The notes: generated by a model from the letters alone, not told the origin. DNA of 24,082 nucleotides from a virus (IMGVR_UViG_3300029448_000435:1-24082), one strand, 5' to 3'; positions 6,606 to 24,082 are shown, counted from the first letter of the stretch. Program-made: numbers and translations.

Positions 6606-7445
6606 ATGTCATTAGGAAACTTATTTTTACAACAACAAATGGGAGAAACCCAAAGAAGAGTAGAGGCTAAACAAGCTGATGAGCAAAAACGAAGAGAACG
6701 TGCAGGATTGTTTTCATCGTTTGGTGGTGGTATTGGTGGACTTTTAGGTGGACTAGCAGCAGGTGCTTTAACGGCTGGTACAGGCGGTTTAGCAGGAGCT
6801 GCTTTATTAGGATTGGGAGCTACAGGTGGATCTTTATTGGGTGCTAGAACAGGTTTAGAATTAGGGGACGGTAGACGAAAAGATGCTGTAGGTTTAGGTA
6901 AAAATGTAGATATGTTGACTGGAAAGACAAAAGAGTTTGGTCAAACTATTAAAGATAAATACAGAAGAGATATTGATAGTTTTCAAAGATCATTAAATAC
7001 AAACATATTAGGACAAGCAGTAAACACAGGTTTAAAAGCAGGAGCATTTGCATTTGCGAATCCAGCTTTGCAAAAAGGATTAGGTAAAGCTAGAAATTTT
7101 ATATCTGGTAATCAATTGCCTACACCAGCAACAGCAAATATAGCAGGAGCACAAGCATATCAACCTGCAGGTATGGGGTCAGATACATTGATAGGGCCAG
7201 CTAGAGCTATGCAAGCTCCTATGCAAGGGCCTATGCCTGTACCACCTACTACGTTACCAACTCCAGCAGTAGCAACAACTCCTACAATGAGTATACCTAC
7301 TCCTACTATGAATACAGCTATGGCTGGTAGCACTTCGGTAACACAGCCTAATAACTTTTTAAACATGGTATATGGGCCACCTAGGCCACCTTCACCATCT
7401 AATTATGTGTCAGATATTTTTAACAGTATGATAGGAGTTCAATAA
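6606..7445 (+). CDS. Putative internal virion / DNA ejection protein
   Basis: GAGG SD. Gly/Ala-rich hydrophobic segment (GGGIGGLLGGLAAGALTAGTGGLAGAALLGLGATGG) and a Pro/Thr-rich tail. Confidence 0.65.
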   Translation: MSLGNLFLQQQMGETQRRVEAKQADEQKRRERAGLFSSFGGGIGGLLGGLAAGALTAGTGGLAGAALLGLGATGGSLLGARTGLELGDGRRKDAVGLGKNVDMLTGKTKEFGQTIKDKYRRDIDSFQRSLNTNILGQAVNTGLKAGAFAFANPALQKGLGKARNFISGNQLPTPATANIAGAQAYQPAGMGSDTLIGPARAMQAPMQGPMPVPPTTLPTPAVATTPTMSIPTPTMNTAMAGSTSVTQPNNFLNMVYGPPRPPSPSNYVSDIFNSMIGVQ

Positions 7446-7446
7446 A

Positions 7447-8172
7447 ATGCATAGACCAGATCATATTATGGATGCAGGAAGATCATTAGAAACAGATAAT
7501 CTTGGAAATATTTCTATTCCTAATCAACCAAATCAATTTGGCCCAACGAATCCAAGTCAATATCAATACAATTGGGATCAGAATACTATTAATCCTTATA
7601 TCCAACAAGGAAGTCCAATTAATAACCCAGCAGGTCAAAACCAAATACAATTTTTAAGCGAGCAAGGTATTAATGTAACAGATCTAGATGAGTCTAGTTT
7701 AGCATTTTTACCTAGTATGGATAGGTTAAATACTGCTTACGACAGAATGAACACTCAAGTAGGTATGGCAAGAACTGGACTTGGGTTTGATATGGGTGCT
7801 CAACAATTATCAGGACAACAAAATTTATTGAATATGACTGGTGGTATGGGACTATCTAGTATGGGTAGTGGTTTTGGAGCACAGGGAAGAAATATGGCTA
7901 GTAACCTTGCCAATACAAACCAAGCATATCAAACAGGTTTAAATCAATCTATGGCAGGTTTTCAATCAGATATATTGGGTATGCAGTATGACTATCAAGA
8001 TTCTCAAACAGATTATCAAGGTGCATTAACTACAGCATTGGGTAATCTTATGGCATCTGGAGAAGATCAATTTAATGTAGCGTATACTGGTAATACTGCA
8101 GGTACAGGTGCAGTAAATCAAAATGTAAGTAGTGATCCAATGACAGATTACTATGATAGTCTATATGGATAA
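7447..8172 (+). CDS. Putative internal virion / ejection protein
   Basis: Low complexity, rich in Q/N/G/M; GGAG SD; located in the ejection-gene block. Confidence 0.6.
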   Translation: MHRPDHIMDAGRSLETDNLGNISIPNQPNQFGPTNPSQYQYNWDQNTINPYIQQGSPINNPAGQNQIQFLSEQGINVTDLDESSLAFLPSMDRLNTAYDRMNTQVGMARTGLGFDMGAQQLSGQQNLLNMTGGMGLSSMGSGFGAQGRNMASNLANTNQAYQTGLNQSMAGFQSDILGMQYDYQDSQTDYQGALTTALGNLMASGEDQFNVAYTGNTAGTGAVNQNVSSDPMTDYYDSLYG

Positions 8173-8193
8173 AAAATTAAATAGGAGTTTATT

Positions 8194-8811
8194 ATGGCAG
8201 TAGATCCAGCAATGGTAGGTTTTCAAGTTGTTGATAATTTACAAAACACATTACTAAACTATGTAATGCAAAACAGAAGAATGCAGTCTCAAGAAAGACA
8301 GTTTAATACTCAAATGAATATGGAGCAGAATCGTCTAGATGAAATGGCAAGACAAGCAAATATTCGAGAAGGACGTTTGGATAGGCAAGAACAACGTGTT
8401 ATTGATAGAGATAAAGCTGGAGCAGATACATTTCGTGAGTTTTTTAATGTAGAAAAAACCAAACGTGATGCAGATAAGTATAAACGTGATCGTCTTGAGT
8501 ATATTACAAAACAAAGGAAAGATCCAATGCGTACAGATTTATTTAATATTGGTGGTTATACTTCGTATGGAGATCCTTTAGGAATTACTGGTGGTAGAAA
8601 AGAATATAAAAGACGTGTTGAAGATTTACTAACAAAAGAGTTTGAAGGTAGAAGAGGTACAATGCCAGAAGTATCTGTTCCTACGTTACCTGATTATGGT
8701 TTTGTTCCTCAATATGCACCTGAATTGTTATCTCTCTACAGACAAAACAATCCAAATAATATTCTGAATCAAGCACAATTAAATCAACTATTACAGAGAT
8801 TGGGAGGATAG
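8194..8811 (+). CDS. Putative internal virion protein
   Basis: AGGAG SD; Q/R/E-rich coiled coil. Confidence 0.6.
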   Translation: MAVDPAMVGFQVVDNLQNTLLNYVMQNRRMQSQERQFNTQMNMEQNRLDEMARQANIREGRLDRQEQRVIDRDKAGADTFREFFNVEKTKRDADKYKRDRLEYITKQRKDPMRTDLFNIGGYTSYGDPLGITGGRKEYKRRVEDLLTKEFEGRRGTMPEVSVPTLPDYGFVPQYAPELLSLYRQNNPNNILNQAQLNQLLQRLGG

Positions 8812-8812
8812 A

Positions 8813-9496
8813 ATGGATCCATATCAAATAGTACAATTAATAGAACAGTATAATGAAAATCCAGATAGGTATACCGATGAAGAAGCAGAGTTTATAGCTC
8901 AACTTGCTCAAGGTATGAATACTAGGTTTGAAAGAGAAAGCAAACCGATACAAAAAGGATTATTTGATTTAGTAGATACGGCTGCATTTGGTTTGATACC
9001 AGATAAGTTTCGTCCTACTACTAGAGGTGAAACTGTATTTGGAGATACAGGAGAAGAAGAACTAGCTAGTCTTCTTGGCTTAGTAGGAGGTGGAGTAGCT
9101 GGTGGTGTTGGTTTAGTCAAAGGTGGCAGAGGCCTTATAAATCGTTTTAAGGGTAGTAAAAAAAGTAGTGGTGGAAATTCAATGACTACTTATGGTGGAG
9201 CTGATGTAGATGCAGATAGAAGAAATAGTTTACTTCAATTAACATCAGGTACTAAAAACAAATCAACCAAAAGATTAAATCCATATTCTAGCGATATAGA
9301 TATAGAAATAAATAGATTAGAAAGAGAAGCTGCTATGGGAGACTATAGTTCTTGGGAAAGATTAAAAGATTTGTACAAATATCAATCAGGTTATACTGGA
9401 AATATTGATTATAGAAAAAGATTTGGAGGTATTAATAATTTTGGTTTTTTTGAAAAGAATCTTGGTGTTCTTAATACTGACGATTTACCGTTTTAA
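8813..9496 (+). CDS. Putative internal virion protein sharing an N-terminal module with the 2655-aa protein
   Basis: GGAGG SD; Gly-rich hydrophobic stretch LLGLVGGGVAGGVGLV; the N-terminus aligns by eye with the next gene. Confidence 0.65.
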   Translation: MDPYQIVQLIEQYNENPDRYTDEEAEFIAQLAQGMNTRFERESKPIQKGLFDLVDTAAFGLIPDKFRPTTRGETVFGDTGEEELASLLGLVGGGVAGGVGLVKGGRGLINRFKGSKKSSGGNSMTTYGGADVDADRRNSLLQLTSGTKNKSTKRLNPYSSDIDIEINRLEREAAMGDYSSWERLKDLYKYQSGYTGNIDYRKRFGGINNFGFFEKNLGVLNTDDLPF

Positions 9497-9500
9497 ATAA

Positions 9501-12500
9501 ATGGCATCACAATATGAAACGTATAAAGTACGTGAACTAGTTACTGCATATAGATCCAATCCTACTATGTTTACAGATGATCAATTAGATCAACTGGAAG
9601 AACTAGCATACAATAATGACATAGAGTTTAAAAGAATCAATAGTGATTTTAATTTAAGCAGAGCTGTACGGAATGCATTTGCTGGAGCTGTAGAAGGGTT
9701 TACTACCTTTGATTTAATTCCTGAAACACCTCGTAATACAGGTGAAGCTATTTTTAGACAGATCGGTCATCTAGTTGGATTTGCCCCAGGAATTGCAAAA
9801 GCTCCTATCTTAGCAGCTTCTAAAGTAGCAAGACGAATTACAGGAGATACAACTCGTAATCGTTTTACTCAAGCTGCACTAGATCATATTGATATATTGG
9901 CTACAAAATCTGTACCTATGCAGTTTAGTAGAGCAGGACAATACGGCTTGGGTAGAGTATTGGAAAAAACAGGCTTAGAATCTGCAGGTTTTTTACAAAA
10001 GGGAACTGTAGGTAGGCAAATAGCAGATGAAGCCGTAGGACTAGGATATGCGAGTGCTATTAGTAATATATGGAAAGGTGAAGATGCAGTCATGGATGGT
10101 TTTATTGGTGGAGCTATTGCAGGGGGAGCATTTGGTGGTATTGGTAATTTTGTTAGTCTAGGTAATTTATATAAAGGCACACCTCAACAAGTAGAAAGAG
10201 CCAATCAAGTTTTACGTGCAGGAGTAGGTTCTTTGGTTACTGGACTTCCCAGTACATTAGCAGATGAGCCTACAGAAATGCAGTTATACAACTATTTATT
10301 GGGTGGCTTTTTTGGATACAAAACAAGACCTGCAGTAGATAGAGAAGCATCTACATGGTATAACAAAGATCGTAATCCTGCAGAAAATTTTAGACCAGAA
10401 GAATCAAAAGATTGGAATAGCATGAGCAAAGAAGCTCAAGACTATATTCGATATGAGCACCCTATGGGATATGAATCTAGTAACAACCAAGCTGGTGGGA
10501 GTGCTGGATTAGCCTTTAAGTATTTAAATAGAAAATCTCAAGAAGCTGGACAGAATATAAACTGGAGAGATAGAGCTATACAGTTTTTTAATCAGAGTGA
10601 TAGAGACTATACAGAAAGAGATATACTAGACTATTATCGTCAAAAAGCAATGCAACAATACAATCAAAATCGTAAAGTATTGGACGATGCTGTTGTGTTT
10701 AGAAACAACGTATACAATAGTGAACAGCTAGACAGAATGGATATAGCTGATCGTGATCGTATTCGTTTAAAGAACACTTCTAAAAAGCTATTTAAACAAT
10801 CCGATAAGTTTCCTACAGACATAGATGTTACGGTTGCTATAGATAACCTTGCTAAAGGATCGAATGGCAATAAAGAACAGTTTATGCTTAACATACAGGA
10901 CACGTTTGGCAAGAAAGCAATTACTCAAAAGATAGACAGAGAATTGCGTACATGGTTTGATGACAAATTAAACATTATGCAACCAATAGATTTGCCAGTA
11001 TTAGATGGCAATAGTGGTACAGGTAGAATAGATATTGTAGAAAATAAACGTATTCAAGATGTAACGATACGAGAGAAAGCTCCTATACTGCCTATTCAAA
11101 AGTTAGCACCTGAAGCTGATATACGTTATCTGACTCATGTTGTATTGGACAATCAAACACCTGTTAAGCTGTTACAACAAAAGTTAAATAGAGATAACGA
11201 AATAGAATATGCTGTAGGGCAGGATGATTTATTGCTACTTAAAAATGTTTTAGCAGAAAACAATAGGTATATTTTCAGTCCTAACAAAGATAAGCTTAAT
11301 GGGTTTACTAGTAATTTTAGAGATGATAATTATACTTTAGATGACATATTTAATATTTTTACTCGTAGTGGATTATCGTTAGAAGAAATACAGCAAAAAT
11401 ATCAAGATGCTTTAGAATTGCAGTATAATATGGTAGGTAGCAAATCGGATTCTGTAGCAAATTTATTTCAACGTGAGTTTATATCCAATGTAGTTACAGA
11501 GTCTCAATTAGAAGGTATACCTGTAGAAGAAAGCTATCGTTTTATACAGGAAGATTCTCCGTATTTAAAGAACGTAATTGATTTTAATAAACGTATGCAG
11601 TTACCTACTGCACGTATGACGTACATGGAACCAGCTAGTTTTAAAGATATAGCTGGAACTAACAATGGAGAGTCCTATAATGTTATATTGGTAAATGATT
11701 TAGACCTAGCAAATCAAGATGGCCATTCTGCAGTTAGAAATGATTTTATGGATGCTAGAGTAAAAGCAATGGGATTAGATTCAAAAATAACAGGATTTGA
11801 TAAGCCTGTCGTATTTACTAAAACAGATTTAGGAGCATTTGCACAAAAGACAAGTGGGCAAACTGCAGCAGAGCCATTGGATAAGTTTATGAGAGATAAC
11901 AATATACATGAAGTGGTTTGGTTATCTTCTGCAAAACGAAAAGGTAATTTGCCTATTACAGAATTAACCTATGGCAAAGATGGCACATGGAGTAGTGAAA
12001 ACATACAGCCTATTACTTTGCCTACGAATGCATTGCAAATTAGTGCAGGCACACGAGAAAACAATTTAAAAGATGTTTTTGGTACAGATATAGTTCTTCA
12101 GTTTTATAACCAAATGAACAATGTACAAGGAACTGGATTTGCAAAAGTGTATCTTGAAAATGTATTACGTCCTTCATTGCAAGGGACTAGAAAAGCACAG
12201 GAACTTGTAGAGACTTTTAATAAAAATAAAGATGTAGATGCATTTGTTAAAGAGTTTAATGAAAAGAAACTTACTATTCATAAGATGCCAATGAATTTTA
12301 TGATAGACAAATTGCAAAGAAATCCTAATGAGCCTGTATCTATTTTCTTATCTGATAAGTTAATGAATGCTGAAACTAAGTTTGAAAATGATGAACCTAT
12401 GAATGAAGACATAGAGTTTGATAGCGATTCTTCTTTTAATGATTATCATTCAGAAAATGAAATGTTAGCTCAAGCATTAAGTAATTCGTATGTAGCTAAA

Positions 12501-15500
12501 CACACTATGAGTTTTAACAAACGTAATTATTTTAATGCATTACGTAAATATTTTACGAAAAGAATTACAAACCCTACCATACCTACTGGTGCAAAATCTA
12601 TTTTACGAGGGTATTACGCACCAGAGATTACCCAGTATATAGAGTTTGATCCGTTAAAAAAAGGAAATAGGAATATAGAATATGGTGAAATCTACCTTGA
12701 TAATGCTCAAAGACAGATGCCTGTGGTTTTTAGGGACAAGCAACTCTCCCTTGGCGAACTTTGGAGTCAGTATACTAGGGCCGTCCCCAAAGGACTTTCC
12801 AAAGAGGATCGTAAAGCTTATGACGATGCACTTACCTTTCTTGTTATTCGTACTCCTGCTGATTCCGTTAGTGGAACACGTGCTGTACGTTTTCGAGGCT
12901 GGTCAAACCAAAGAGGTGGAGGAGCATTATTACATGCCAAAGATAAACAATACCTCGGAGGTGCAGACCACGACATTGATAGTATAAAAATATTTCAAGG
13001 ATTAGGCCCAGAGTTAGCAGAATTTTATAGAAAGAATAAAGATGAAAGAGCTAGATGGGATACAGATCCTGAGTATGTTAATAGTTTAAATGATTTATTT
13101 GTAGATAAGAATATTCCTACAAAACTAAAAGAAGGTTTTGAAGATAAATTTAATATCTTTTCTCCTTCTTATCGTTTATTAACAGGTATGCGATCTAGTA
13201 CAGGTAAAGATGGATTGGGTAGAGGATTAACGGCTGGACAGCATTTAATGTCTATGTATGATTTTGTTAATTCTAAAGGTGGTTTTTTTGAAATAAAAAA
13301 CGCTAAAGATGATGGAGCAGCAGTTACAATAACTCTTCAAACAAAAAGCAAAGAAGATTTTTTAGAGTTTTTAGACAGAAAAGTAATGGTGGTAAATAAA
13401 GCAGCAGATGCTAGTAAAGATCCAACTATTATACCGTATAACCTTCAACCTGATTTGTTACTAGATAAAATATTTACTATTAGAAAAAATGGCAATCCTA
13501 TTAATGCTGATTACAATCAGTTTACACGATATATTGCTGGAACAAAATTAGAAGCAATTAAGAATACCGTACGATTAAGTAAGCCAAAGCAACGAAGTGC
13601 TGATGGCAAAACAGCTAAAGATTATTTTGAATATATAAAAGATTTAAATGCTGTACGAGCTACGTTAGAAAACGAAGGATTAGATTTAATTCATCCTGCT
13701 CTTAACCGAGAGCTACAGAGAACGTTTCGAGATGGAATTGATTACAGTAATATTAATCGTGTGCAAGAGCGATTGTTTAGAGAGCTTAAACGAAGTTATG
13801 AGCTTGAACGATCAGGTAAGCTTAAGATTAGAGAAAATAAAAAGAAAGCAGAAGAATATCTGTCTAAACATTTTGATATTATAACCGATGAGTTAAGCTT
13901 TAGAAATGTAAATACACATAGACTGGCAATGGAAAACGATCCAAATGAAGGCTATGATATGTTTGGTAAAGATATAGGCCAGTATGCTACTATGGAATTA
14001 TTAACCAAACAATTTGTTGATATACAAAATGCTTTTTATGATAAAGGTAGAGTCGTAAATGTAGTAGATGATGTGTTTCCTAAAATAAAGGAAGAAGCAT
14101 TTCAGATTAAAGATTATGTACAAGAAATCTTTAAGAATCCTGAAAGAGATAATACTATGAATTTAGATCTAGATGGCAAGATACGATCCATGATGGAACG
14201 ATTGCAGGATTTAGAAAGAGATAGTGGCATTCAAGATGGCTTATTGCAGGATTATTTTTCTTATTGGTTATTAAGTCCAATACGAAGAAATCCTACACCA
14301 AATAAACCAGCCAAGCCACAATATTATAAGATGCTACATTCTTCTAGAGCAATCCCTATGCGTGCTAAGAAAGATTTCTATCAGCAAATGGATGCTATCT
14401 TTAATAGAACATTAGAAGCAGATAAAGGCATTATAGAATTGCAAAAACCTAGAAAGTTAGAAGAAACTATACTAGGTAGTAATGCAAAAGTATTTGATAC
14501 ATTAGATACATTGGTTTCTAAGAATGCATTAGAAAACATAGCATTTACAGACAAAGATTTAGTTGAAGTGCAAAAGTTACAGGAAACTATTAAAACAAAT
14601 CCAGCAGGTGTTGATTTTAACAATTGGTTTATGAACTACACCAATAGCAAAGGTCAAGCTAGAGACATAACTACTATGACTATGAATGACGTTAAAGAAG
14701 TGAATACGTATCTTAAAGAACTGGATACGGTAGAAGGATTACCTGTATATCTTAAAGATTGGCATACGTCACCTATGACTTTAGAAAGAAAATTACAAAA
14801 AATGAATTTTCTAACCAGAGGTATTAAAGCACGAAAAGCTGTTTTAACAAGCAAGGGTATGGTAGATAGAGAATTTGTTAAGATAATGAGTCCTATAGAG
14901 TCTATTCGATTATCTGTGAATGATATGGAACGCAATATTAATATCTATGACAGAAAAGCATTGTTAATGCGTAAAGATTTAGAACGATCATTAGCTAATA
15001 TATCGAGTGTACCTAATGTACGTGGTGCATATATAAAAGAATTAATTGAATATAGAGAAGGTAGAAAGACTTTAGAGCAACTAGATAAGTCTATTGATCA
15101 AAAGAAATTTCTACAATTAAATGATAGTGCTACAAAGTTTTTTAAAGACATGTGGCAATTTGTTGCTGTAAAAGATAAAGCAGGAAATGATTTTGACTGG
15201 AGTAAAATTGATAAGAATAAAGAATATGGCAGGATTAATAATTACATTAAGTATAATAAGAATGGAAAGTTTGATTTAAAGCATTTTGAGAATACAGTTA
15301 TGAATGCAAAACCAACGGATGCTATCATTAAAACAGTAGGGATAGATGGTTTAATGAGATATAACTACGAGTATCGACTAGAAAAGTTAATTCAAAGCAA
15401 GAACCCTAAGAATCCTAAAGTATTTAGAGAGCAGCAAAGAGCAAACAAACCATTTTATCCTAGACGGAAACGTAATTTTGACACGTATATACACCATAGC

Positions 15501-17468
15501 ATACGTAAAGTAAATGAAAAGACTTTATTGGAACAAGCAGAATGGTTAAATAGACAAGCAGAAAAAGGCAATCTAAATAGATTATCTAGAGATCTTGCTA
15601 TGAACAATCCATTCTTTGATATTAATAGCAGAATTACAATTGGTACAGATTATGAAGTTGCCTTTGAACAATCTAGAGGATCGTATGCTTCTCCCTTAAA
15701 AAAGCGTGGTGAGGATTCTGTTCCTTTTAAAAAAGATGAAGGCTTATTTAAAGATTATCAAGATGCTATCATTAGAGGCTATTTTAGAAACTTAACTAAG
15801 TTTAAAGCACAAGGTGATATAGATGCTTTCTTAGATAATATGCAGAATTATAAACCAGCACCCAATGAAGCAAAGAAATTTAAAGACCTATATAAAGGAG
15901 TAAGCCTTACAGAAATACCTGATAATCAGAGATATAATAACTATGTAGATGTATGGGCAGACTTTATACGTACGTATGCAGAAACATCTATGGGATACCA
16001 GACAACATTTTCTACAAAGCAAAAAACACCACAAGGAAGAAAGTTACTGCATTTAAATAAGTCTAATTTGTTTTATCTAACGTCAGATGAAGTAGGTGCA
16101 AATCAATTAGAAAAGATTTATAAGAGTAGATTTGGTGGCAAAGAGACGATTCCCTTTATTAATAAAAAGTTAATACCACAAGACCCACAAGCTAGACAAA
16201 TGTTTTATTACAACCTGATACGTAATTGGGGAGCTATGGAAGCTAAGTATCAGTTAATGTCTTTGTTGTTTAATACTGGTTCGTTTGTAAATAATGTATT
16301 TGGTGGTACTACACAAACGGCAGCGTATGCAGGTTTAGAAAACTTAAAAGATTCTGGTAACATGAAAGTTGTAAATGATTTATTGCTTACCGATCAATAT
16401 GGAGTTAGTAAAGTCTTTTTAAATAATGGTAAACCTGTAAAGTCTTTTAAAGATATAAGTAAATGGCTAGAAGAAAATGGTTTTTATGACAATTATTTAC
16501 AGAACGAATTTGATTTTAATCCAGAATTAACTACACGATTAAAAGAATTAGGTCATAGCTTTAAAGATTTTAACCGAGATATGTTAACGGCTTTAAAAAG
16601 TAAGAAAGGCAATCGTGATGAAAGTGTAAAAGATGTATTAAATAAATACGGTGTATCCGATATAATGCTAAAGACTGGTGGATTTTTTATGCAAGAATCA
16701 GAACGCATTAATCGAAAGAAAGCTTTTCTTGCTGGAGCATTACAATATATTAAAGGTACAGGTAGGCTAGGTAAAAATTTAACATTATCAGATGATCAAG
16801 TAATTGAACATGCTATGAATGCTATACGATATTCTCAATTCTTTTATCAGAATGCAGAAAGACCTTTGTTTATGTCTACATCAACAGGAAAAGTATTAAG
16901 TAGGTTTAAACTCTTCGCATTCAACAGCGTAAGGATACGTAAAGAATATTATAGACAAGCTAAAGAGCTAGGCATGAATCCTAACTCAAAAGAATTTAAA
17001 CGACTCGAAAGACAGATTACTGCTGATTTATGGATGTATATGTTAGGTGCTGCTTTTATGTTTAGTTTATTTGATACTACGTTACCTCCACCATATGATT
17101 GGATACAATCGTTAGCTGACTATACTTTTGGTACAAAAAAACAAAAAGAAATGGCATACTTTAATGATCCATTAGGGCCATTAAGTATATTGAAACCACC
17201 TATTGCCAGAATACCTGAAGCTGCAGGTGAGCTATTAACAGGTAACTGGGATGAGTTTACAGATTATACTATGTATACCTTATTGCCATTTGGTAGAGGG
17301 ATTAGGCAAGCTGTGCAATTATCAGATGATAGAATTGGGAGAGGGTTAGATCGTGCTCCTGAAATATTGTTTAGAATCCCTTATGGTCAATTTATAAATA
17401 GAGTTGAAAGAGCTAAGTCTAAAAAGAAACGTATGGATTATATAGAAAAACTATTAGAAAATTCATAA
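9501..17468 (+). CDS. Giant virion protein with a two-barrel (DPBB) RNA polymerase core; putative virion RNA polymerase
   Basis: RTP (aa 1117-1119) and ALLH...LGGADHDID (DxDxD at aa 1156-1160). Upstream are DG (aa 740) and the K768/K783 pair. The C-terminus resembles an ejection protein. It is the last gene of the ejection block. Confidence 0.8.
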   Translation: MASQYETYKVRELVTAYRSNPTMFTDDQLDQLEELAYNNDIEFKRINSDFNLSRAVRNAFAGAVEGFTTFDLIPETPRNTGEAIFRQIGHLVGFAPGIAKAPILAASKVARRITGDTTRNRFTQAALDHIDILATKSVPMQFSRAGQYGLGRVLEKTGLESAGFLQKGTVGRQIADEAVGLGYASAISNIWKGEDAVMDGFIGGAIAGGAFGGIGNFVSLGNLYKGTPQQVERANQVLRAGVGSLVTGLPSTLADEPTEMQLYNYLLGGFFGYKTRPAVDREASTWYNKDRNPAENFRPEESKDWNSMSKEAQDYIRYEHPMGYESSNNQAGGSAGLAFKYLNRKSQEAGQNINWRDRAIQFFNQSDRDYTERDILDYYRQKAMQQYNQNRKVLDDAVVFRNNVYNSEQLDRMDIADRDRIRLKNTSKKLFKQSDKFPTDIDVTVAIDNLAKGSNGNKEQFMLNIQDTFGKKAITQKIDRELRTWFDDKLNIMQPIDLPVLDGNSGTGRIDIVENKRIQDVTIREKAPILPIQKLAPEADIRYLTHVVLDNQTPVKLLQQKLNRDNEIEYAVGQDDLLLLKNVLAENNRYIFSPNKDKLNGFTSNFRDDNYTLDDIFNIFTRSGLSLEEIQQKYQDALELQYNMVGSKSDSVANLFQREFISNVVTESQLEGIPVEESYRFIQEDSPYLKNVIDFNKRMQLPTARMTYMEPASFKDIAGTNNGESYNVILVNDLDLANQDGHSAVRNDFMDARVKAMGLDSKITGFDKPVVFTKTDLGAFAQKTSGQTAAEPLDKFMRDNNIHEVVWLSSAKRKGNLPITELTYGKDGTWSSENIQPITLPTNALQISAGTRENNLKDVFGTDIVLQFYNQMNNVQGTGFAKVYLENVLRPSLQGTRKAQELVETFNKNKDVDAFVKEFNEKKLTIHKMPMNFMIDKLQRNPNEPVSIFLSDKLMNAETKFENDEPMNEDIEFDSDSSFNDYHSENEMLAQALSNSYVAKHTMSFNKRNYFNALRKYFTKRITNPTIPTGAKSILRGYYAPEITQYIEFDPLKKGNRNIEYGEIYLDNAQRQMPVVFRDKQLSLGELWSQYTRAVPKGLSKEDRKAYDDALTFLVIRTPADSVSGTRAVRFRGWSNQRGGGALLHAKDKQYLGGADHDIDSIKIFQGLGPELAEFYRKNKDERARWDTDPEYVNSLNDLFVDKNIPTKLKEGFEDKFNIFSPSYRLLTGMRSSTGKDGLGRGLTAGQHLMSMYDFVNSKGGFFEIKNAKDDGAAVTITLQTKSKEDFLEFLDRKVMVVNKAADASKDPTIIPYNLQPDLLLDKIFTIRKNGNPINADYNQFTRYIAGTKLEAIKNTVRLSKPKQRSADGKTAKDYFEYIKDLNAVRATLENEGLDLIHPALNRELQRTFRDGIDYSNINRVQERLFRELKRSYELERSGKLKIRENKKKAEEYLSKHFDIITDELSFRNVNTHRLAMENDPNEGYDMFGKDIGQYATMELLTKQFVDIQNAFYDKGRVVNVVDDVFPKIKEEAFQIKDYVQEIFKNPERDNTMNLDLDGKIRSMMERLQDLERDSGIQDGLLQDYFSYWLLSPIRRNPTPNKPAKPQYYKMLHSSRAIPMRAKKDFYQQMDAIFNRTLEADKGIIELQKPRKLEETILGSNAKVFDTLDTLVSKNALENIAFTDKDLVEVQKLQETIKTNPAGVDFNNWFMNYTNSKGQARDITTMTMNDVKEVNTYLKELDTVEGLPVYLKDWHTSPMTLERKLQKMNFLTRGIKARKAVLTSKGMVDREFVKIMSPIESIRLSVNDMERNINIYDRKALLMRKDLERSLANISSVPNVRGAYIKELIEYREGRKTLEQLDKSIDQKKFLQLNDSATKFFKDMWQFVAVKDKAGNDFDWSKIDKNKEYGRINNYIKYNKNGKFDLKHFENTVMNAKPTDAIIKTVGIDGLMRYNYEYRLEKLIQSKNPKNPKVFREQQRANKPFYPRRKRNFDTYIHHSIRKVNEKTLLEQAEWLNRQAEKGNLNRLSRDLAMNNPFFDINSRITIGTDYEVAFEQSRGSYASPLKKRGEDSVPFKKDEGLFKDYQDAIIRGYFRNLTKFKAQGDIDAFLDNMQNYKPAPNEAKKFKDLYKGVSLTEIPDNQRYNNYVDVWADFIRTYAETSMGYQTTFSTKQKTPQGRKLLHLNKSNLFYLTSDEVGANQLEKIYKSRFGGKETIPFINKKLIPQDPQARQMFYYNLIRNWGAMEAKYQLMSLLFNTGSFVNNVFGGTTQTAAYAGLENLKDSGNMKVVNDLLLTDQYGVSKVFLNNGKPVKSFKDISKWLEENGFYDNYLQNEFDFNPELTTRLKELGHSFKDFNRDMLTALKSKKGNRDESVKDVLNKYGVSDIMLKTGGFFMQESERINRKKAFLAGALQYIKGTGRLGKNLTLSDDQVIEHAMNAIRYSQFFYQNAERPLFMSTSTGKVLSRFKLFAFNSVRIRKEYYRQAKELGMNPNSKEFKRLERQITADLWMYMLGAAFMFSLFDTTLPPPYDWIQSLADYTFGTKKQKEMAYFNDPLGPLSILKPPIARIPEAAGELLTGNWDEFTDYTMYTLLPFGRGIRQAVQLSDDRIGRGLDRAPEILFRIPYGQFINRVERAKSKKKRMDYIEKLLENS

Positions 17469-17480
17469 TTCGTTATAAAT

Positions 17481-17502
17481 TAGCATACCAATAACAAACT
17501 AA
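17481..17502 (+). repeat. attP left-arm tandem 11-bp repeats (putative integrase arm-type sites)
   Basis: TAGCATACCAA + TAACAAACTAA, matching the pair at 17638-17659. Confidence 0.65.
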
Positions 17503-17550
17503 AGTTGTTTTGATTGCTTATGAATTTTACAGTTTTTCTTCTCAGTAAAC

Positions 17551-17598
17551 TTACGTTGACATCGTAGAGGTCGGCGGTTCGACTCCGTCATCGCCCAC
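17551..17598 (+). mobile_element. attP core: 3' half of tRNA-Val(GAC)
   Basis: Anticodon arm TTACG-TTGACAT-CGTAG, variable loop AGGTC, T arm GGCGG-TTCGACT-CCGTC, acceptor 3' strand ATCGCCC-A. There is no 5' acceptor strand or D arm. It ends 63 bp before the integrase ATG. Confidence 0.9.
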
Positions 17599-17637
17599 TG
17601 TAGACAAAACAATATTAGTTGTTATTAGGTTTTTTGA

Positions 17638-17659
17638 TAACAGACCAATAGCAGACCAA
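17638..17659 (+). repeat. attP right-arm tandem 11-bp repeats (putative integrase arm-type sites)
   Basis: TAACAGACCAA + TAGCAGACCAA directly before the integrase ATG. Confidence 0.7.
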
Positions 17660-17661
17660 TT

Positions 17662-18549
17662 ATGTCATCAATCTTTAAAAACAAAGGTATTTACTACCTT
17701 AAAATCACATATCATTACAAGCGTATAGTACGATCTTTACAAACCAAAGATAAACGTATTGCTAAACAACGTGCTAAAATATTAGAACCACAGTTGTTTG
17801 AAGAGTTAATTCATCCTAGTAATAAACAATTTTTACCTTTTAATGATCTAATTAAAAAGTATCTACAAGCAGAGCATAACTGGAGTAAAGCTTCTAGAGA
17901 CACAACAATTCAAGTCTTAAAAAAATATAAGAAAGGAATACCGTTACCTGAGAATGAGGCAACAAGAATAGGAGTACAGGGAAGGCTAAATGCGGTGATA
18001 AATTGGGGTAAAAAGAACGGTTTTACTACAGATCTAAACAAGTATAAGCTTAAGAAAAAACCAGCTAGAAATCGAGTATTTACTGACATAGAATTAGTAA
18101 AAATATTTAAGCATACACGTGATTTAAACTTTAGAAGATTTGTACAATTTGCATATTATACAGGTGCAAGACGTAGTGAGCTTTGTAATATGAAACAAAG
18201 TAATATATATGAAAAGTATTTTAAAACTTTTGGTAAAACAGGAGAGAGGCTTGTTCGTTTAAATACGCAAGCTAAAGACATTTTATACCAGCAGGGTAAG
18301 TTATGGGAGTACGAAACTGATTATGTTACTCATCACTTTAAAAAAAATCTACGCAGGATAGGCATAGAAGACGGATGCTTCCATGATCTGCGTAGAACAT
18401 TTGGTTTAAATTTAATTAAATCAGGTATGCCTATATATACGGTGTCTAAGCTTTTGGGACATAGCAGCATCTCTACTACAGAATGGAACTATGCCCCATT
18501 GCTTGTAACCGATATAGGAGATTTTAGTCTACCTGTTAATTCCAAATAA
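17662..18549 (+). CDS. int: Tyrosine recombinase / phage integrase
   Basis: Motifs TGARRSE (R), KT (K), HDLRRT (HxxR), LLGHS and WNY (catalytic Tyr). Short N-terminal beta-rich arm-binding-like region. Adjacent to attP. Confidence 0.93.
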   Translation: MSSIFKNKGIYYLKITYHYKRIVRSLQTKDKRIAKQRAKILEPQLFEELIHPSNKQFLPFNDLIKKYLQAEHNWSKASRDTTIQVLKKYKKGIPLPENEATRIGVQGRLNAVINWGKKNGFTTDLNKYKLKKKPARNRVFTDIELVKIFKHTRDLNFRRFVQFAYYTGARRSELCNMKQSNIYEKYFKTFGKTGERLVRLNTQAKDILYQQGKLWEYETDYVTHHFKKNLRRIGIEDGCFHDLRRTFGLNLIKSGMPIYTVSKLLGHSSISTTEWNYAPLLVTDIGDFSLPVNSK

Positions 18550-18798: not shown

Positions 18799-18806
18799 AG
18801 TAACTC

Positions 18807-19190
18807 CTACGTTATGTTAATAAATGGTTTTAAGTACCATTTAGATTGTAAAGATTTAAGTGTAGACTCTAGTAACTCAATGTGTTTTTTCTTCTTATTG
18901 TTTTCGTAACGTAATTTTTTAATCGTGCTGTCTCTTTTACTCATTTTAGTTACTATATCAAGTAATTCTTCATCCATTGCTTCCAGTTCTCTTTTGGTTT
19001 GTTTTACAGAAGACAAAGCTGTTTCTTGATATTCTTTATATTCATCAGATAGTTTGCTATATCTTTTTCTTAAGTCAATTAGTTCTTCTGAAGGCAATCT
19101 AGGAACACCATAATGATCAAAGACATATTGGAATCCTTTTTTATACATAGGATGTTCCATGTTTTTTTCATGTTCAAAAGGATCTTTCAT
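18807..19190 (-). CDS. Hypothetical coiled-coil protein
   Basis: AGGAG SD; long heptad-like helical region. Confidence 0.8.
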   Translation of the reverse strand: MKDPFEHEKNMEHPMYKKGFQYVFDHYGVPRLPSEELIDLRKRYSKLSDEYKEYQETALSSVKQTKRELEAMDEELLDIVTKMSKRDSTIKKLRYENNKKKKHIELLESTLKSLQSKWYLKPFINIT

Positions 19191-19199
19191 ATATTCTCC

Positions 19200-19454
19200 T
19201 TATTTATAATGTTCTCTATCAGGATCCCATTCTTCATACAAATGATCAATAGGATAGTTATCGCTTTCTATGTTTTGATGTGAATAGTAATATTGTTTCA
19301 TATAGTATTTAAGTTCTTCTCTAGCTTCACCATTTCCTACAACATCATCAGCTACTTGAGCTAGTAATCTATCAAGTGTTGTATGATATTTATGGTTATC
19401 TATACTTACTTCTTCAATTTTATTTGTTTGAGTTAAATCATGTTTTGTGTACAT
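19200..19454 (-). CDS. Hypothetical protein
   Basis: AAGGAGG SD before the ATG; 84 aa. Confidence 0.8.
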   Translation of the reverse strand: MYTKHDLTQTNKIEEVSIDNHKYHTTLDRLLAQVADDVVGNGEAREELKYYMKQYYYSHQNIESDNYPIDHLYEEWDPDREHYK

Positions 19455-19779
19455 GTGTATCCTCCTTTTTATATGTTTGTTTCATTGCAAGAAAAAGCAA
19501 AAGGTAATTAATAATATCACTTACACGTCCTTCAATGCTTTCTGATGAATGTTCTTGTCCATCCTTGAAATAGCTTTGAAGACTAGATAAGTGTTTATTT
19601 AGGTATACAGATAGAACTTGCATAGGCTCTAAGCCAAGCTTATTACCTATGCTTTCAAAGTTCCATAATACGTTACTGTTTTGATGTCCTTCGGTATACT
19701 CGATTCTTTTTTCATCTGATAGTTTTAAAGTATCCTGTAAGAAGTGATCTCTAAACTGTTCGTATTCTTTAGCTGTCAT
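19438..19779 (-). CDS. All-alpha NTP-pyrophosphatase-like protein (MazG / Nmad1-DUF1599-like)
   Basis: Pattern K..EY...NF...Y..KH...ESIEGR..DIINY. Start re-assigned to ATG 19779 with a GAGGA SD. Confidence 0.6.
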   Translation of the reverse strand: MTAKEYEQFRDHFLQDTLKLSDEKRIEYTEGHQNSNVLWNFESIGNKLGLEPMQVLSVYLNKHLSSLQSYFKDGQEHSSESIEGRVSDIINYLLLFLAMKQTYKKEDTHVHKT

Positions 19780-19915
19780 AATCTTCCTCTGGCTTTTCAA
19801 TTATAAATGTATATTTTAAACAATTGTCATCTGATGAATCTAAATGCCACAGATAAGGACAATTATTTAACCATTCTAAAAACTTATTATTTACGTATTT
19901 TGACAGTATATCCAT
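19769..19915 (-). CDS. Hypothetical protein (48 aa)
   Basis: Manual translation MDILSKYVNNKFLEWLNNCPYLWHLDSSDDNCLKYTFIIEKPEEDYDS. TAATG coupling; fills an operon gap. Confidence 0.7.
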   Translation of the reverse strand: MDILSKYVNNKFLEWLNNCPYLWHLDSSDDNCLKYTFIIEKPEEDYDS

Positions 19916-20301
19916 TACATTTGCTCCTGCTGATCTTCATTAAGTGCATTGCAAATAACTTGTGCTTTTCTCATTACGTCAGCTATTGTCTTGTCAGGAG
20001 TATTTTGATAACATTCTCCAATAAAGACATTCCAGTTATCGTTAGTTACCCATACTTCACAACCATTCTTGCGTGTGGTTACTGAATATGGATCTGTATC
20101 TATATGCTTCATAGTGTTTTCCTTTTGCAATAAATCGTCTATAGTAATTTTAAAGAAAGCAGCTAATTGTTTTAATTGAGCAATAGATGGTTCGGTTATT
20201 GAACCTTCCCATCTTGCTATTGTTTGCTGGTTTACTTTAAATATATCAGCTAATTGCTGTTGAGTTAGTTTTTTGTTTTTTCGTAATTGTTTTAGTCTCA
20301 T
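19915..20301 (-). CDS. XRE/Cro-C1 family HTH transcriptional regulator with a C-terminal extension
   Basis: RLKQLRKNKKLTQQQLADIFKVNQQTIARWEGSITEPSIAQLKQLAAFFKITIDDLL is a canonical HTH_3-type domain. Confidence 0.88.
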   Translation of the reverse strand: MRLKQLRKNKKLTQQQLADIFKVNQQTIARWEGSITEPSIAQLKQLAAFFKITIDDLLQKENTMKHIDTDPYSVTTRKNGCEVWVTNDNWNVFIGECYQNTPDKTIADVMRKAQVICNALNEDQQEQM

Positions 20302-20555
20302 TATTCTTTCTTTATATTTTCGATTCGTTTTACTTCATCATATATTTCATTACTACCCATTCCTCTGGGATCTCCTGCTTTCCATTCTTCATAGATTTGA
20401 TCTCTAGCATCTTTATATTTGCTGGTATCTACTTGAATACCCAATACAGGGCCAAAACTCATATCTGCTGTATTGCAGAAGAATCCTATTTGATACAATC
20501 CTTCGTATTTAGGATCGTCATAACTAATATCATTTTGCCATAGCTCCCATGCCAT
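20301..20555 (-). CDS. Hypothetical protein
   Basis: Start re-assigned to ATG 20555, which has an AAGGAG SD 7 nt upstream. Confidence 0.75.
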   Translation of the reverse strand: MAWELWQNDISYDDPKYEGLYQIGFFCNTADMSFGPVLGIQVDTSKYKDARDQIYEEWKAGDPRGMGSNEIYDEVKRIENIKKE

Positions 20556-20576
20556 AGTATTTCTCCTTTTAAACAT

Positions 20577-20644
20577 CGGTAGGAAAGGTCGAGGTACTAA
20601 GCTTTCTAGAAAAGCGTTCTCTTTACTGTCCCCTACGTCCGTTT
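20577..20644 (-). other. GC-rich intergenic element with nested inverted repeats
   Basis: GTAGG/CCTAC outer stem and GCTTT-TCTAG-AAAGC inner hairpin, upstream of a strong SD. Confidence 0.4.
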
Positions 20645-20653
20645 ACTTAAGTT

Positions 20654-20899
20654 TTATTTACATTGTTTACATACTTTAATTTGTTTTCCATAGGTAGGAA
20701 AATTTTCATAGTACAAATAGATCTTTTTATTTGCTTCTCTATTTGATTTTACTTTTGATTTTTCACTATCTATTTCATAGCAACGATCACAATCAGGGCA
20801 ATATTTAATAGCAACATCTGCTCTACGTGCATCATATAAGTTCTGATTTCTATGTTGTCTATCAATAATCTTTTCCCCAGACAGCCATTTTTCTAGCAT
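20654..20899 (-). CDS. Zn-ribbon protein
   Basis: CPDC...CKQC pairs; AAGGA upstream. Confidence 0.75.
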   Translation of the reverse strand: MLEKWLSGEKIIDRQHRNQNLYDARRADVAIKYCPDCDRCYEIDSEKSKVKSNREANKKIYLYYENFPTYGKQIKVCKQCK

Positions 20900-21119
20900 G
20901 ATCTATTTCCTTTTGCATATCGTGAATTAAGTCTTTTAGTTCTTGCAGCATTACCCCAATTTGAGAATTAGGGTCAACAGAGGGATGTTTTGCTAATTTG
21001 TTAATTATTTTGTAACATTCTTGTGCATGCATTGTAACTCCTACGTTATTAAAGTATGCGTAAAAGGGGAACATGGTTTTAGCCAAAACCAATATATGCT
21101 CCCCTTTTTTATTTCTCAT
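20862..21119 (-). CDS. Hypothetical protein
   Basis: AGGAG SD; overlaps its neighbours in the operon. Confidence 0.75.
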   Translation of the reverse strand: MRNKKGEHILVLAKTMFPFYAYFNNVGVTMHAQECYKIINKLAKHPSVDPNSQIGVMLQELKDLIHDMQKEIDHARKMAVWGKDY

Positions 21120-21294
21120 TGTCTCCTAAACGCCAACCTAGAAAACAACGTACATTTGCCATTCTTTTTGTATGCTTTTCATAGAAACACAAAACAATAA
21201 CTATTTTGTTTATGTTCTTTGAGTCAACCATTGACAAAAAGAAGTCACCTAGCTCATATCTTTTTTTGATAATCATCGCTAGACTATTACCCAC
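21109..21294 (-). CDS. Hypothetical protein (start uncertain; may be ATG 21276)
   Basis: Fills the operon gap between the resolvase and the next gene. Confidence 0.55.
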   Translation of the reverse strand: MGNSLAMIIKKRYELGDFFLSMVDSKNINKIVIVLCFYEKHTKRMANVRCFLGWRLGDNEK

Positions 21295-21658
21295 TTATCA
21301 TTTTAAATAAGTCAAGTAAATCTTGATATCGTATAGTTACTAACGCTTCTTTACGATCTTCTTTGAGAATTTGTCCATAGACTTCATCACATGGTTTTAA
21401 GTAATCAGCTATAGCTTTACGACCTTTAACTTGAAATTTGAATACTCCATAATCATTCTCATAATTTTTATAATTAATATTGCTTGAAGTTTTTACATTA
21501 TCAGGTAACGTAATTGTCATGTCTACTTCTTCATGCCAGCCTAATGATCTGCCATCAGATCCCCAAGCACGTTTGGATTCAAATCCATAGCCTTTAGCTA
21601 AATTGACACATTCTCGTTCAATTCTATTGCCTTTTTGTTTGGGTGCTTTGCCACTCAT
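21287..21658 (-). CDS. Holliday-junction resolvase-like PD-(D/E)xK nuclease (Hjc-like)
   Basis: Pattern KQKGNRIERE...EVD...FQVK; located downstream of the primase-helicase. Confidence 0.75.
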   Translation of the reverse strand: MSGKAPKQKGNRIERECVNLAKGYGFESKRAWGSDGRSLGWHEEVDMTITLPDNVKTSSNINYKNYENDYGVFKFQVKGRKAIADYLKPCDEVYGQILKEDRKEALVTIRYQDLLDLFKMISG

Positions 21659-21780
21659 AATTCTTGCTCCTCAAAATCTGTGTGTTCTGCACAATCACCA
21701 CATAATCCATACCATTCGTCTTCAAACTCATGTATATCATATAATGGCAATGCTCCACAGCATACGCTTACATAAATCAT
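21655..21780 (-). CDS. Small Cys-rich Zn-finger protein (41 aa)
   Basis: Manual translation MIYVSVCCGALPLYDIHEFEDEWYGLCGDCAEHTDFEEQEL. ATGA overlaps at both ends; GAGGA upstream. Confidence 0.75.
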   Translation of the reverse strand: MIYVSVCCGALPLYDIHEFEDEWYGLCGDCAEHTDFEEQEL

Positions 21781-21986
21781 TCTTCCTCCTCAAGATTAGG
21801 TAATGCTTTTTTCTTATTTGCTTCTATTTCTGCATAAGTAGGTTGCCCTAATAATCTCCAGATTCCATCTAAATAATGTTTGCCACTACTGCTCATTCTT
21901 TGACGATCACAATTTTCAAGATCAGTTAATAACATGATTAATTCTTGAGTCATTTGTGATTGAATATTTGCTTTGGGTTTTTTCAT
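21777..21986 (-). CDS. Hypothetical protein
   Basis: Start re-assigned to ATG 21986 (ATGA overlap, AGGTGG upstream). Confidence 0.7.
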   Translation of the reverse strand: MKKPKANIQSQMTQELIMLLTDLENCDRQRMSSSGKHYLDGIWRLLGQPTYAEIEANKKKALPNLEEEE

Positions 21987-22204
21987 AATATCCACCTTTT
22001 TTCTATGTTGAATCCGATAAATAATCGTAGTGGTAGTAGCTCAAAATAAATAGCTACTGCTCCACTCATGGTATCACTTAGTGTAATTGCAACACTAAAT
22101 GCATTGAGTATCACTAGTTTATATTGCCTAGTGGGATACTCTTTACTCTTCTTCAGATAAAAGAGCTTCATTGTTGCTACGTCTAGTATGCGTAAGACTG
22201 TCAT
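21983..22204 (-). CDS. Hypothetical protein
   Basis: AGGA upstream; part of the tightly packed operon. Confidence 0.6.
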   Translation of the reverse strand: MTVLRILDVATMKLFYLKKSKEYPTRQYKLVILNAFSVAITLSDTMSGAVAIYFELLPLRLFIGFNIEKRWIL

Positions 22205-22397: not shown

Positions 22398-24082
22398 TTA
22401 TGATCTTTTATCAAATGTGAATGTTTCATAATTAAACTTAAGTGCAAGTTCAAACATAGATTCATCCCTTGCTTTTAAAGAGCGTACGGTGCGTTTCTTT
22501 TTGGATGCGTCACCATCTACACTCTCAAATGCAATGTATTGATCTGACTTTTGTTCTATTGAGGAATTACCTTTACCGCTATGTACATCTAATTTCTGAC
22601 CTTCACTCAATCGAGTAGAGGAATACTTAGAAATATGATGTATTGCTATGACAATAACGTCTTCTTTCATTGCCATATCTTTTAAAGCGTTAGCAATTAC
22701 TTCTTGTCTCGCTAGATCATCTTTACCTGCGTATTTAGCAGGAATACGATCTATAGTATCTATTACAATAACTTTGCATTCGCTATTTGCAACAAAACTA
22801 GGTAACTCTTGTATGTCAGGAGAACGAGGAACAAGTTGTATATGCTTGATAGATTCTTCTGCTTCTATCATCATTTCCATGTTTTTAGATGTTAAACCAA
22901 TTTCTATTTGTTGCTTTGTCATACCAAGTGCTGCTTGCATAAATCGTCTAGACATAGTTTGTTCATCTACTTCTAGAGATAAGAACAAACATTTTAGACT
23001 TTTAATGCGAGTAATGATGTATTGTATTAAAGCAGTTTTACCTAGTCCAGTATCTCCAATTAAGGTAATTAATTGTCCTGTGGTAAATAGATGTGGTTTC
23101 TTCATAAATGGAAAGATGTTTTGCATATCAAAAGATCTATCTGTGTAATCTGTTTGATAAAACTCAGCAAGATTTTCTATCATACTTTTAGCAGATAGAA
23201 TTTCAGCAGTTTCATCAAGATCCTTATATCTATATAAGGTACACTTACTATCACAATACGGAACTAAATCAGGATGATTGCATCCAAAGTTGTAGTCATT
23301 TTTAATAGCATCTGTTACGATTCTATTGACTTCATCCATTGGAAGTGGTTTTTCCATTTGTTCTACATACGTTCTTGCTAATGCAAGTACTGCAGGTTTT
23401 GGATGTCCTAATTTCTTATGCCATATTGCTGCTAGTGCCAATAAATGCCTATGACGTTTTTTATCTACATGTCCAGCATTGTATATATGCTGTGCACAAG
23501 AAATAAAACGTGTGGCTTTCTTGGATGTATTCTCATAGACTTTTCGTACTTCGACTATATTCTTACGACTCATATCCATAGGTTCTAAATGCAACAATTC
23601 TTCATGTATAATTGCAGTTGCTTTATCTTGCACAGGTTGTTTAGCATAGTCTTTTATAGACTCATAACTCATGTTATCTAAATCCTGTACACCAATAGGT
23701 ACTTTGTATCGTTTGGATTTGTAGTTATAACTAAATCCACTACGAATGAGTCTTCGAGGGTCATAGATCAAGTCAATATCTGCACCAAAGTCTCTAGCCA
23801 TTGTTGACCTGACTTGAGCAGATAGTTTTTTACTGGTTTGTTCTTTAAAACCGTATACATTTGCTAGATGGATATGAAATCCTGTACCAGAAAACCATAT
23901 ATTATAGTGTTCTGGTCTAATGTTTAAGCTATGTATCGTTTCAACAACCTTTTTGACTTGTTCTATAGTTTTTTCTCCATTTATTTGATCCGATAACGGA
24001 GATTTGTGATAGTCAATATCAATAACAAGTTTGTCAACCGCTTGCAGGCCATTAAAACCAATCACCGTTTTATTTGTTTCCA
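22398..24082 (-). CDS. Primase-helicase fusion: AEP (PrimPol) domain, Cys-containing helical domain and SF4 (DnaB-like) helicase; 5'-truncated
   Basis: AEP motifs VIDID, FSGTGFHIH and IYDPRRLIR. Helicase motifs Walker A GDTGLGKT, SLE, Walker B VIVID, KGNSSIEQ and KAR. The frame stays open to the window edge. Confidence 0.9.
   Translation of the reverse strand, partial: ETNKTVIGFNGLQAVDKLVIDIDYHKSPLSDQINGEKTIEQVKKVVETIHSLNIRPEHYNIWFSGTGFHIHLANVYGFKEQTSKKLSAQVRSTMARDFGADIDLIYDPRRLIRSGFSYNYKSKRYKVPIGVQDLDNMSYESIKDYAKQPVQDKATAIIHEELLHLEPMDMSRKNIVEVRKVYENTSKKATRFISCAQHIYNAGHVDKKRHRHLLALAAIWHKKLGHPKPAVLALARTYVEQMEKPLPMDEVNRIVTDAIKNDYNFGCNHPDLVPYCDSKCTLYRYKDLDETAEILSAKSMIENLAEFYQTDYTDRSFDMQNIFPFMKKPHLFTTGQLITLIGDTGLGKTALIQYIITRIKSLKCLFLSLEVDEQTMSRRFMQAALGMTKQQIEIGLTSKNMEMMIEAEESIKHIQLVPRSPDIQELPSFVANSECKVIVIDTIDRIPAKYAGKDDLARQEVIANALKDMAMKEDVIVIAIHHISKYSSTRLSEGQKLDVHSGKGNSSIEQKSDQYIAFESVDGDASKKKRTVRSLKARDESMFELALKFNYETFTFDKRS

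Follow-up and report, generated by a model that had tools for sequence, protein, structure and literature searches.

We describe a 24,082-nucleotide (nt) stretch of viral DNA (IMGVR_UViG_3300029448_000435; here called the window), a virus record in its own right, in which the gene for a predicted RNA polymerase (RNAP) of 2655 amino acids (aa) lies directly beside a phage attachment site (attP) and an intact tyrosine integrase. Besides the window, a 47.5-kb sibling genome (G005) and at least 12 other virus records share this layout, which makes 14 or more in all. The account that we hold to be moderately probable is that the RNAP is injected on infection, and that the integrase-attP unit together with a predicted repressor, which carries helix-turn-helix (HTH) and PAS-like domains, gives lysogeny with a restart by host RNAP on induction. 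The features of the junction are as follows.

9501..17468, + strand: single-chain two-barrel RNAP (predicted), 2655 aa, closing the structural arm, probably packaged in the virion
12966..12980, + strand: catalytic DxDxD motif of the RNAP (D1156-D1160), kept in 42 of 42 homologues
17481..17502, + strand: attP left arm, two 11-nt copies of the integrase arm-type repeat
17552..17598, + strand: attP core, 3' half of tRNA-Val(GAC)
17638..17659, + strand: attP right arm, two 11-nt copies
17662..18549, + strand: tyrosine integrase, 295 aa, catalytic set intact

The RNAP open reading frame stops at a TAA codon (17466-17468), and the gap to the first arm copy is exactly 12 nt. These coordinates and the Pfam and PHROG matches confirm what a first, sequence-only reading of the window had described: an RNAP gene that ends 12 bp from the attP arms, an intact integrase, and a nearby HTH gene of the XRE type. 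A 25-nt imperfect inverted repeat (76%; 17444-17468 and 17518-17542) spans the RNAP stop codon and the left arm.

A predicted two-barrel RNA polymerase

Two-barrel RNAPs share eight invariant residues, with DxDxD, R and P in one barrel and D, K and K in the other (passages available from PMC2919709). All eight are there in the 2655-aa protein. D740, K768, K783, R1117, P1119 and D1156/D1158/D1160 are invariant columns of a 42-row alignment, assigned to the canonical positions by motif order, and the motifs DxDxD, R-x-P and G-x-D-x-D-x-D are kept in all 42 homologues. DxDxD is also intact in the seven relatives checked from a distant temperate group (the first phage of G439, G490, G491, G494, G495, G498 and G499).

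A structure model of the core, approximately residues 650-1400, has a predicted local distance difference test score (pLDDT) of 87 and a predicted template modelling score (pTM) of 0.86. The model contains a double-psi barrel pair, in line with its top PDB matches by Foldseek, where the virion RNAP of phage phi14:2 is the best (6vr4, E 7.5e-10), followed by QDE-1 and RDR2. Named RNAP matches in a fold search of a viral library include crAss-like phage proteins. At the sequence level the protein has no match in Pfam, PHROGs, PDB (phmmer/hmmsearch) or annotated phages (tblastn), and in the ESM Atlas it matches only unnamed viral clusters, under 0.9. Its family comprises 477 clusters at 50% identity. 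Judged from its invariant catalytic residues and its modelled fold, the protein is a two-barrel RNAP of the crAss gp66 type, and its earlier identification as an RNAP has thus held. Four homologues (P0015, P0017, P0018 and P0027) carry a precomputed PF13532 domain, which we take to be a 2OG-Fe(II) oxygenase family, and P0042 carries PF25176.

Probable virion packaging and a repeated early-arm motif

The sibling G005 (47,552 bp, CheckV 100%) is of the podovirus type, with a terminase, a P22-like portal (P22_portal), an SU10_MCP capsid and an SU10_adaptor. Its two gene arms point away from each other at one end of the genome and towards each other at attP, and the structural arm finishes with the RNAP. 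The RNAP holds this position in every genome drawn, following candidate ejection genes, which in the window are two entries.

6606..8811, + strand: three small Gly/Gln-rich genes, candidate ejection or internal virion proteins as suggested by position and composition
8813..9496, + strand: 227-aa gene, N-terminal ~100 aa in common with the RNAP, glycine-rich hydrophobic segment, candidate ejection protein

No convincing Pfam or PHROG family was found for the three small genes. The likeness between the 8813..9496 product and the RNAP (blastp E 1.2e-5 over the N-terminal region) extends to weakly hydrophobic glycine-rich segments in both, and when 15 genomes are clustered the gene groups with the RNAPs in each of them. 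In G005 we recognised neither a second RNAP nor a sigma factor, and no DNA polymerase; its replication genes are a primase-helicase, Sak and DUF932. Taken together, the position, the N-terminus, the fold and the lack of a recognised second RNAP or sigma factor make it quite probable that the RNAP is packaged in the virion.

A pyrimidine-rich directional motif precedes early genes of G005 (forward 22450, 22954, 23474, 24928, 27882). A matrix trained on G409, a genome that has no integrase, gives five matches on the early-arm strand of G005 and none on the other strand, and 25 early-strand versus 3 other-strand matches in G411, G415, G417, G420, G439 and G423. The motif varies by lineage, with up to 11 copies (G448) and 7 (G436). 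It is not a repressor operator, because integrase-free genomes carry it. A two-barrel virion RNAP of phage P23-45 reads a conserved motif before pre-early genes (bioRxiv 2022.12.01.518664, in the passages available). The motif described here resembles it and is a candidate promoter for such an enzyme.

The strongest competing explanation, which we regard as unlikely, is that the enzyme, rather than being injected to transcribe early genes, is produced within the cycle in the manner of YonO or serves mainly as a DNA-ejection motor, with host RNAP starting the early genes both in infection and on induction and hence no dual entry. YonO, the single-subunit RNAP of the temperate phage SPbeta, transcribes late genes (PMC8270828, available passages), and early transcripts of phi14:2 are described as having no common upstream motif (bioRxiv 2020.03.07.982082, available passages), unlike those here. 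Some motif copies coincide with the 3' side of a hairpin stem that has T's after it and could therefore be terminators or RNA-processing sites, and no repeated motif is detectable in the distant temperate group. Against this explanation, however, the motif sequence is conserved even where no hairpin forms, the late arm of G005 has no copy of it, the RNAP ends the structural arm and shares its N-terminus with a candidate ejection protein, and its fold is nearest to that of a virion enzyme.

A repressor candidate that follows the integrase

Beyond the integrase, the window continues into the convergent early arm.

18807..22204, - strand: distal end of the early arm, with small genes and a PD-(D/E)XK/RusA-like nuclease, in synteny with G005
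19915..20301, - strand: XRE HTH gene fused to a conserved small early protein (Pfam HTH_3, E 2e-13)
22398..24082, - strand: primase-DnaB helicase, cut by the window end

The XRE gene was considered as the lysogeny switch. We rejected it in this role: it is full length only in L270, and its HTH half, which is absent from G005, occurs only in this strain and is fused to a gene that is common in early arms.

All-against-all clustering of 15 genomes identified a family of HTH-coiled-coil-PAS proteins in 5/5 integrase genomes that cover the region and in 0/8 others. Among records at least 90% complete, the gene is present in four of the four with an integrase and in none of the 19 without. A profile matched none of 73 integrase-negative records, many of which are fragments; its five matches were the family's own members. 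Sixteen further records were found through the HTH-PAS gene, and the eight with an integrase are all eight that reach at least 22 kb. Conversely, G498 and G499 were found through the att core only, and both carry the gene (2/2 examined). The members used here are the following.

G005 L148:8117-8899: HTH-PAS repressor candidate of the sibling genome
L161:6022-6819, L163:11117-11866, L165:16788-17489 and L177:3356-4192: HTH-PAS repressor candidates of relatives

The predicted protein consists of an N-terminal HTH, a coiled coil, and a PAS-like C-terminal domain (model pLDDT 76). The PAS assignment is supported by VIA (Z up to 8.8, 49 of 50 rows PAS-containing), and Atlas clusters pair Phage_CI_repr with PAS_3 in Fidelibacterota. 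None of five members has an S24 self-cleavage match at E<=1, which sets the candidate apart from repressors of the lambda CI/LexA type. Related proteins occur in 12 of 401 Marinisomatota genomes, one of them in a host context (L268). In G005 and its relatives, outside the window, this gene would be the repressor gene expected of a temperate phage.

In a 40-kb record (G493, 13530-27944), an integrase and an HTH-PAS gene are adjacent, in company with a 1168-aa protein and a 2910-aa protein unlike this RNAP family; here a different phage carries the same kit for lysogeny. Genes of 520-565 aa with a ParB-like domain (L241:3264-4958(-), L243:6900-8552(-)) abut the 3' end of the repressor gene in several distant temperate genomes.

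Host-type promoter-like sites beside the repressor candidate

The HTH-PAS gene is located in the middle of the early arm, 10-12 kb from the integrase, with the pre-early block on one side and the replication genes on the other. In 11 genomes it points away from the replication genes. Taken over 10 divergent genomes, the sigma70-like sites 5' of the first lytic gene have a summed score of 71.8, compared with 50.9+-5.3 in dinucleotide shuffles (p 0.002) and 40.2 on the opposite strand. The distant temperate group has a small gene at this position.

L241:1946-2296, - strand, and seven homologues: gene of no known family, 103-123 aa, immediately 3' of the sigma70-like site and confined to the distant temperate group

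In seven of the eight genomes with this gene, the best sigma70-like site stands at nearly the same distance from the start, and it often overlaps a short palindrome. The product could be a Cro, an antirepressor or an activator. G005 has two terminators and a 10/12 sigma70-like site 5' of the repressor candidate (p 0.003). Scans of the att junction and of the G005 early start gave promoter-like sites no commoner than in shuffles. The sequence-only reading had argued that an induced prophage would need a second, host-RNAP-dependent route into early transcription. The sigma70-like sites by the integrase-linked candidate suggest an entry point for it, but the packaging, promoter use and integration that the route presupposes stand as predictions.

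A virion RNAP and integration might also be combined with an induction that depends on freshly synthesised phage RNAP, or on an activator transcribed by the host enzyme, and not on host RNAP entering directly at the repressor; we consider this decidedly unlikely. Consistent with it, the phage motif lies directly 5' of the first post-repressor gene in G005, G411 and G420, and the conserved 103-123-aa gene comes right after the sigma70-like site in eight distant temperate genomes. However, the RNAP gene closes the late arm, promoter-like sites near the junction do not exceed chance, and making the RNAP would itself need host RNAP. The small gene, moreover, is missing from G005, G411, G420 and G436.

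Attachment site, integrase and probable host

The first 31 nt of the tRNA core (17552-17598) retrieve 57 genome loci, of which 25 are identical to the core over all 47 nt. Thirteen of these 25 are titled Marinimicrobia/Neomarinimicrobiota and 12 are unnamed bacteria, with none from other named phyla; in L047 the exact match extends to 50 nt. At up to two mismatches to the last arm copy the 11-mer has 11 matches in the window, three of them inside the arms. The 11-mer alone is not rare; the telling feature is its tandem placement on either side of the core. There is no whole tRNA in the window, where Rfam and ARAGORN make no call on the half tRNA; because of this, and because phage genes flank it on both sides, the site is an attP.

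The integrase matches Pfam PF00589 (E 9e-19) and PHROG 1 (E 1e-37), and R170, K192, H241, R244, H267 and Y277 are invariant across seven aligned integrases. An intact tyrosine integrase, an attP core and arm repeats, as found in temperate phages that target tRNA genes, are thus all present. The host phylum is likely Marinisomatota, since the full core matches loci of that phylum and close integrases are found in its genomes. We conclude that the window is likely the attP-bearing half of a marine podovirus of ~47 kb, likely of Marinisomatota.

Att sites across the records correspond to four tRNAs (tRNA-Val, -Gly, -Ala and -Leu). Some of those in G436, G439, G451, G494, G495, L278, L339 and L346 hold a whole tRNA (Gly, Leu) or a 5' part (Val, Gly, Ala) in place of a 3' half. 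Many chromosomal integrases 43-50% identical to that of the window (L280-L347, L348-L363) stand behind reversed tRNA fragments, read from the letters as Pro, Leu, Ser, Ala, Asp and Arg, with no phage genes nearby. A 2.8-kb locus (L283) holds a host merR-like gene, a whole tRNA-Pro(GGG), an integrase 56% identical to that of G499 and one early-arm homologue, and is possibly the attL of a related element.

Distribution of the integrase module

Reverse searches brought in G490, G491, G494, G495 (direct terminal repeats), G498, G499 and G500, each of which has both an RNAP and an integrase; the three records found through the att core alone carry both (3/3). An RNAP is upstream of the integrase in 12 of 78 metagenome integrase loci, some of which duplicate these virus records. 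Co-occurrence of the integrase with this RNAP clade, a check named in the sequence-only reading, is real and recurrent as a module, but a PF00589 integrase is found in only 6 of 79 RNAP-bearing records (4 of the 23 that are at least 90% complete). A special coupling between the two genes is not borne out: the module is an optional insert where the arms meet and is absent from most relatives. Lytic and temperate pairs within the family have polymerases 54-57% identical. The ~350-aa genes found 3' of the RNAP in other relatives are not integrases. One record (G439, 88,986 bp) consists of two related phage genomes joined, of which the first is temperate and the second is not.

The integrase and attP might, then, be a hitch-hiking or short-lived insert from host genomic islands in an effectively lytic phage. 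We find this very unlikely, although the scattered distribution speaks for it. In addition to the 6/79 count, in a quick tree of 51 RNAP cores (a quick method, whose motif filter dropped seven distant temperate RNAPs) the seven integrase-positive rows need six changes, similar to shuffled labels. The integrase family is shared with Marinisomatales chromosomal elements: of 233 Marinisomatales genomes, 14 have close integrases, and these have no phage genes as neighbours. No prophage was found. On the other side stand the intact catalytic sets, the arm repeats, the four different tRNA targets, and the co-occurrence, without exception where the region is covered, of the integrase with a gene 10-12 kb away, which is not expected of a passive insert.

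A chimeric assembly at the tRNA-like core has a virtually negligible probability. In four runs the Logan contigs are interrupted at the core or close to it, as expected where host tRNAs share the core sequence, and none extends over the whole stretch, whereas G005 aligns to 9477-19477 in one 10-kb block (94.7% identity), three overlapping Logan pieces of run X8 tile 16688-18069, and at least 13 other virus records have the same order with other tRNA cores. Long-range support for the junction thus comes from the G005 alignment and the Logan contigs. The chimera that the sequence-only reading had allowed for did not materialise in these independent assemblies; of the support it had looked for across 17400-17700, the tiling by X8 pieces was obtained but not a contig covering the whole stretch.

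Proposed course of infection and induction

All functional steps of the dual-entry mechanism that we favour are inferred. The RNAP would be made late and ejected with the neighbouring proteins, and on infection the injected enzyme would read the repeated motif and transcribe the early arm. The genes for the repressor and the integrase stand outside that transcription or point against it, and host RNAP would express them. Integration into tRNA-Val would split the genome between the RNAP and integrase genes and restore the tRNA. In the integrated form the integrase would then come after the restored tRNA-Val, with the RNAP gene at the opposite end. On induction, a signal sensed by the PAS domain, rather than RecA-type self-cleavage, would lift repression. 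Host RNAP would enter the replication half of the early arm, bypassing the pre-early block, and would then transcribe the late genes, including the RNAP for new virions.

Several observations weigh against this mechanism. No integrated copy was found: the RNAP is present in 0/401 genomes of the phylum and 0/233 of the order, which are incomplete metagenome-assembled or single-amplified genomes in overlapping sets where the integrase itself is rare, and the 78 metagenome integrase loci include no clear host-prophage junction, so that the integrated homologues suggested earlier as a check did not appear. In the distant temperate group the G409 motif was not found, and a de novo search of six genomes gave no convincing motif. 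Foldseek matches to the PAS domain are weak (E>=2e-3). The HTH-PAS gene is co-directional, not divergent, in G005 and G411. The sigma70 scan used weights chosen by us, with the G494 start and two window widths set by hand, and single-genome scores are mostly non-significant (p 0.04-0.94 in the lytic direction). G411 has no significant sigma70-like site (p 0.84), and in G436 a terminator-like hairpin separates the site from the first lytic gene. The window, finally, ends short of the repressor and promoter region, for which the data come from G005 (95% nt identity) and relatives.

More tentatively, we can imagine as a possibility a recurring Marinisomatota lineage with two ignition systems, an injected gp66-like polymerase with private promoters and a ligand-sensing HTH-PAS repressor that, placed with a host promoter in the middle of the early arm, would restart the replication genes from the prophage without SOS. 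Two unlinked cassettes would repeatedly make lytic virion-RNAP phages temperate, and induction would be tied to light, redox or a metabolite.

Relation to known systems

Phages of the crAss-like group (Crassvirales) have a crAss-type capsid, portal and terminase, a genome of ~100 kb and a Bacteroidota host. The phages described here have an RNAP of the gp66 fold but differ in capsid and portal, in size (47.5 kb in G005) and probably in host, the att core pointing to Marinisomatota. The N4 virion RNAP is a T7-like single-subunit enzyme, not a two-barrel one, and is accompanied by a second RNAP. The enzyme described here has a two-barrel fold and no second RNAP was recognised in G005, which does not fit the Schitoviridae.

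The closest enzyme is gp66 of Cellulophaga phage phi14:2 (6VR4), which is similar in its single-chain two-barrel fold, its DxDxD motif, its likeness to QDE-1 and its nature as a large structural-module protein (template modelling score 0.49). However, the RNAP here is 12% identical to gp66, with no sequence-level match by phmmer/hmmsearch, and it belongs to a ~47-kb phage with a P22-like portal, an SU10-type capsid and no recognised DNA polymerase. This phage also has an integrase, a repressor candidate and a repeated early motif, the last of which is not reported for gp66 in the available passages.

The sequence-only reading had supposed that phages with a virion RNAP are not known as integrase-using prophages, a premise that published reports in part contradict. 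N4-like (Schitoviridae) proviruses with an integrase have been described, with 40 integrated proviruses reported (Zheng et al. 2023, PMC10654107, available passages). They combine a virion RNAP with an integrase and face the same induction problem, for which the passages give no switch or mechanism. Epsilon crAss-like phages have a gp66-like RNAP, repressor/antirepressors and transposases, and two incomplete related Parabacteroides prophages are reported (PMC11054128, available passages); their hosts are gut Bacteroidota, and an attP-integrase unit is not named in those passages. The Bacillus prophage SPbeta is likewise a temperate phage with a single-chain two-barrel RNAP, YonO, which acts late on the structural operon and is not stated to be virion-borne in the passages available (PMC8270828, PMC2919709). 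Because N4-like proviruses, epsilon crAss-like prophage fragments and SPbeta are already published, a virion RNAP with lysogeny is not a new category.

Thermus phage P23-45 (gp96/gp64) is similar in having a motif-reading two-barrel virion RNAP, and its gp64 is a weak fold match. P23-45 differs in a tape-measure fusion and a second, non-virion RNAP, and the words 'prophage' and 'temperate' are absent from the available text (bioRxiv 2022.12.01.518664). The available passages of PMC11437467 add nothing on the pairing of virion RNAP and lysogeny. In the literature searched, which did not extend to subscription papers and supplements, there is no description of this RNAP-integrase family, of its HTH-PAS repressor or of an induction route.

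How a phage with an injected polymerase is induced from a prophage is unanswered in the literature consulted, though proviruses are reported. The natural lytic and temperate pairs found here point to a minimal set of added parts, namely an integrase-attP unit, an HTH-PAS repressor and a host promoter. The family also offers a candidate promoter for a two-barrel virion RNAP and a repressor type without a self-cleavage domain, and it supplies phages with an assigned host for a marine phylum that is abundant and largely uncultured.

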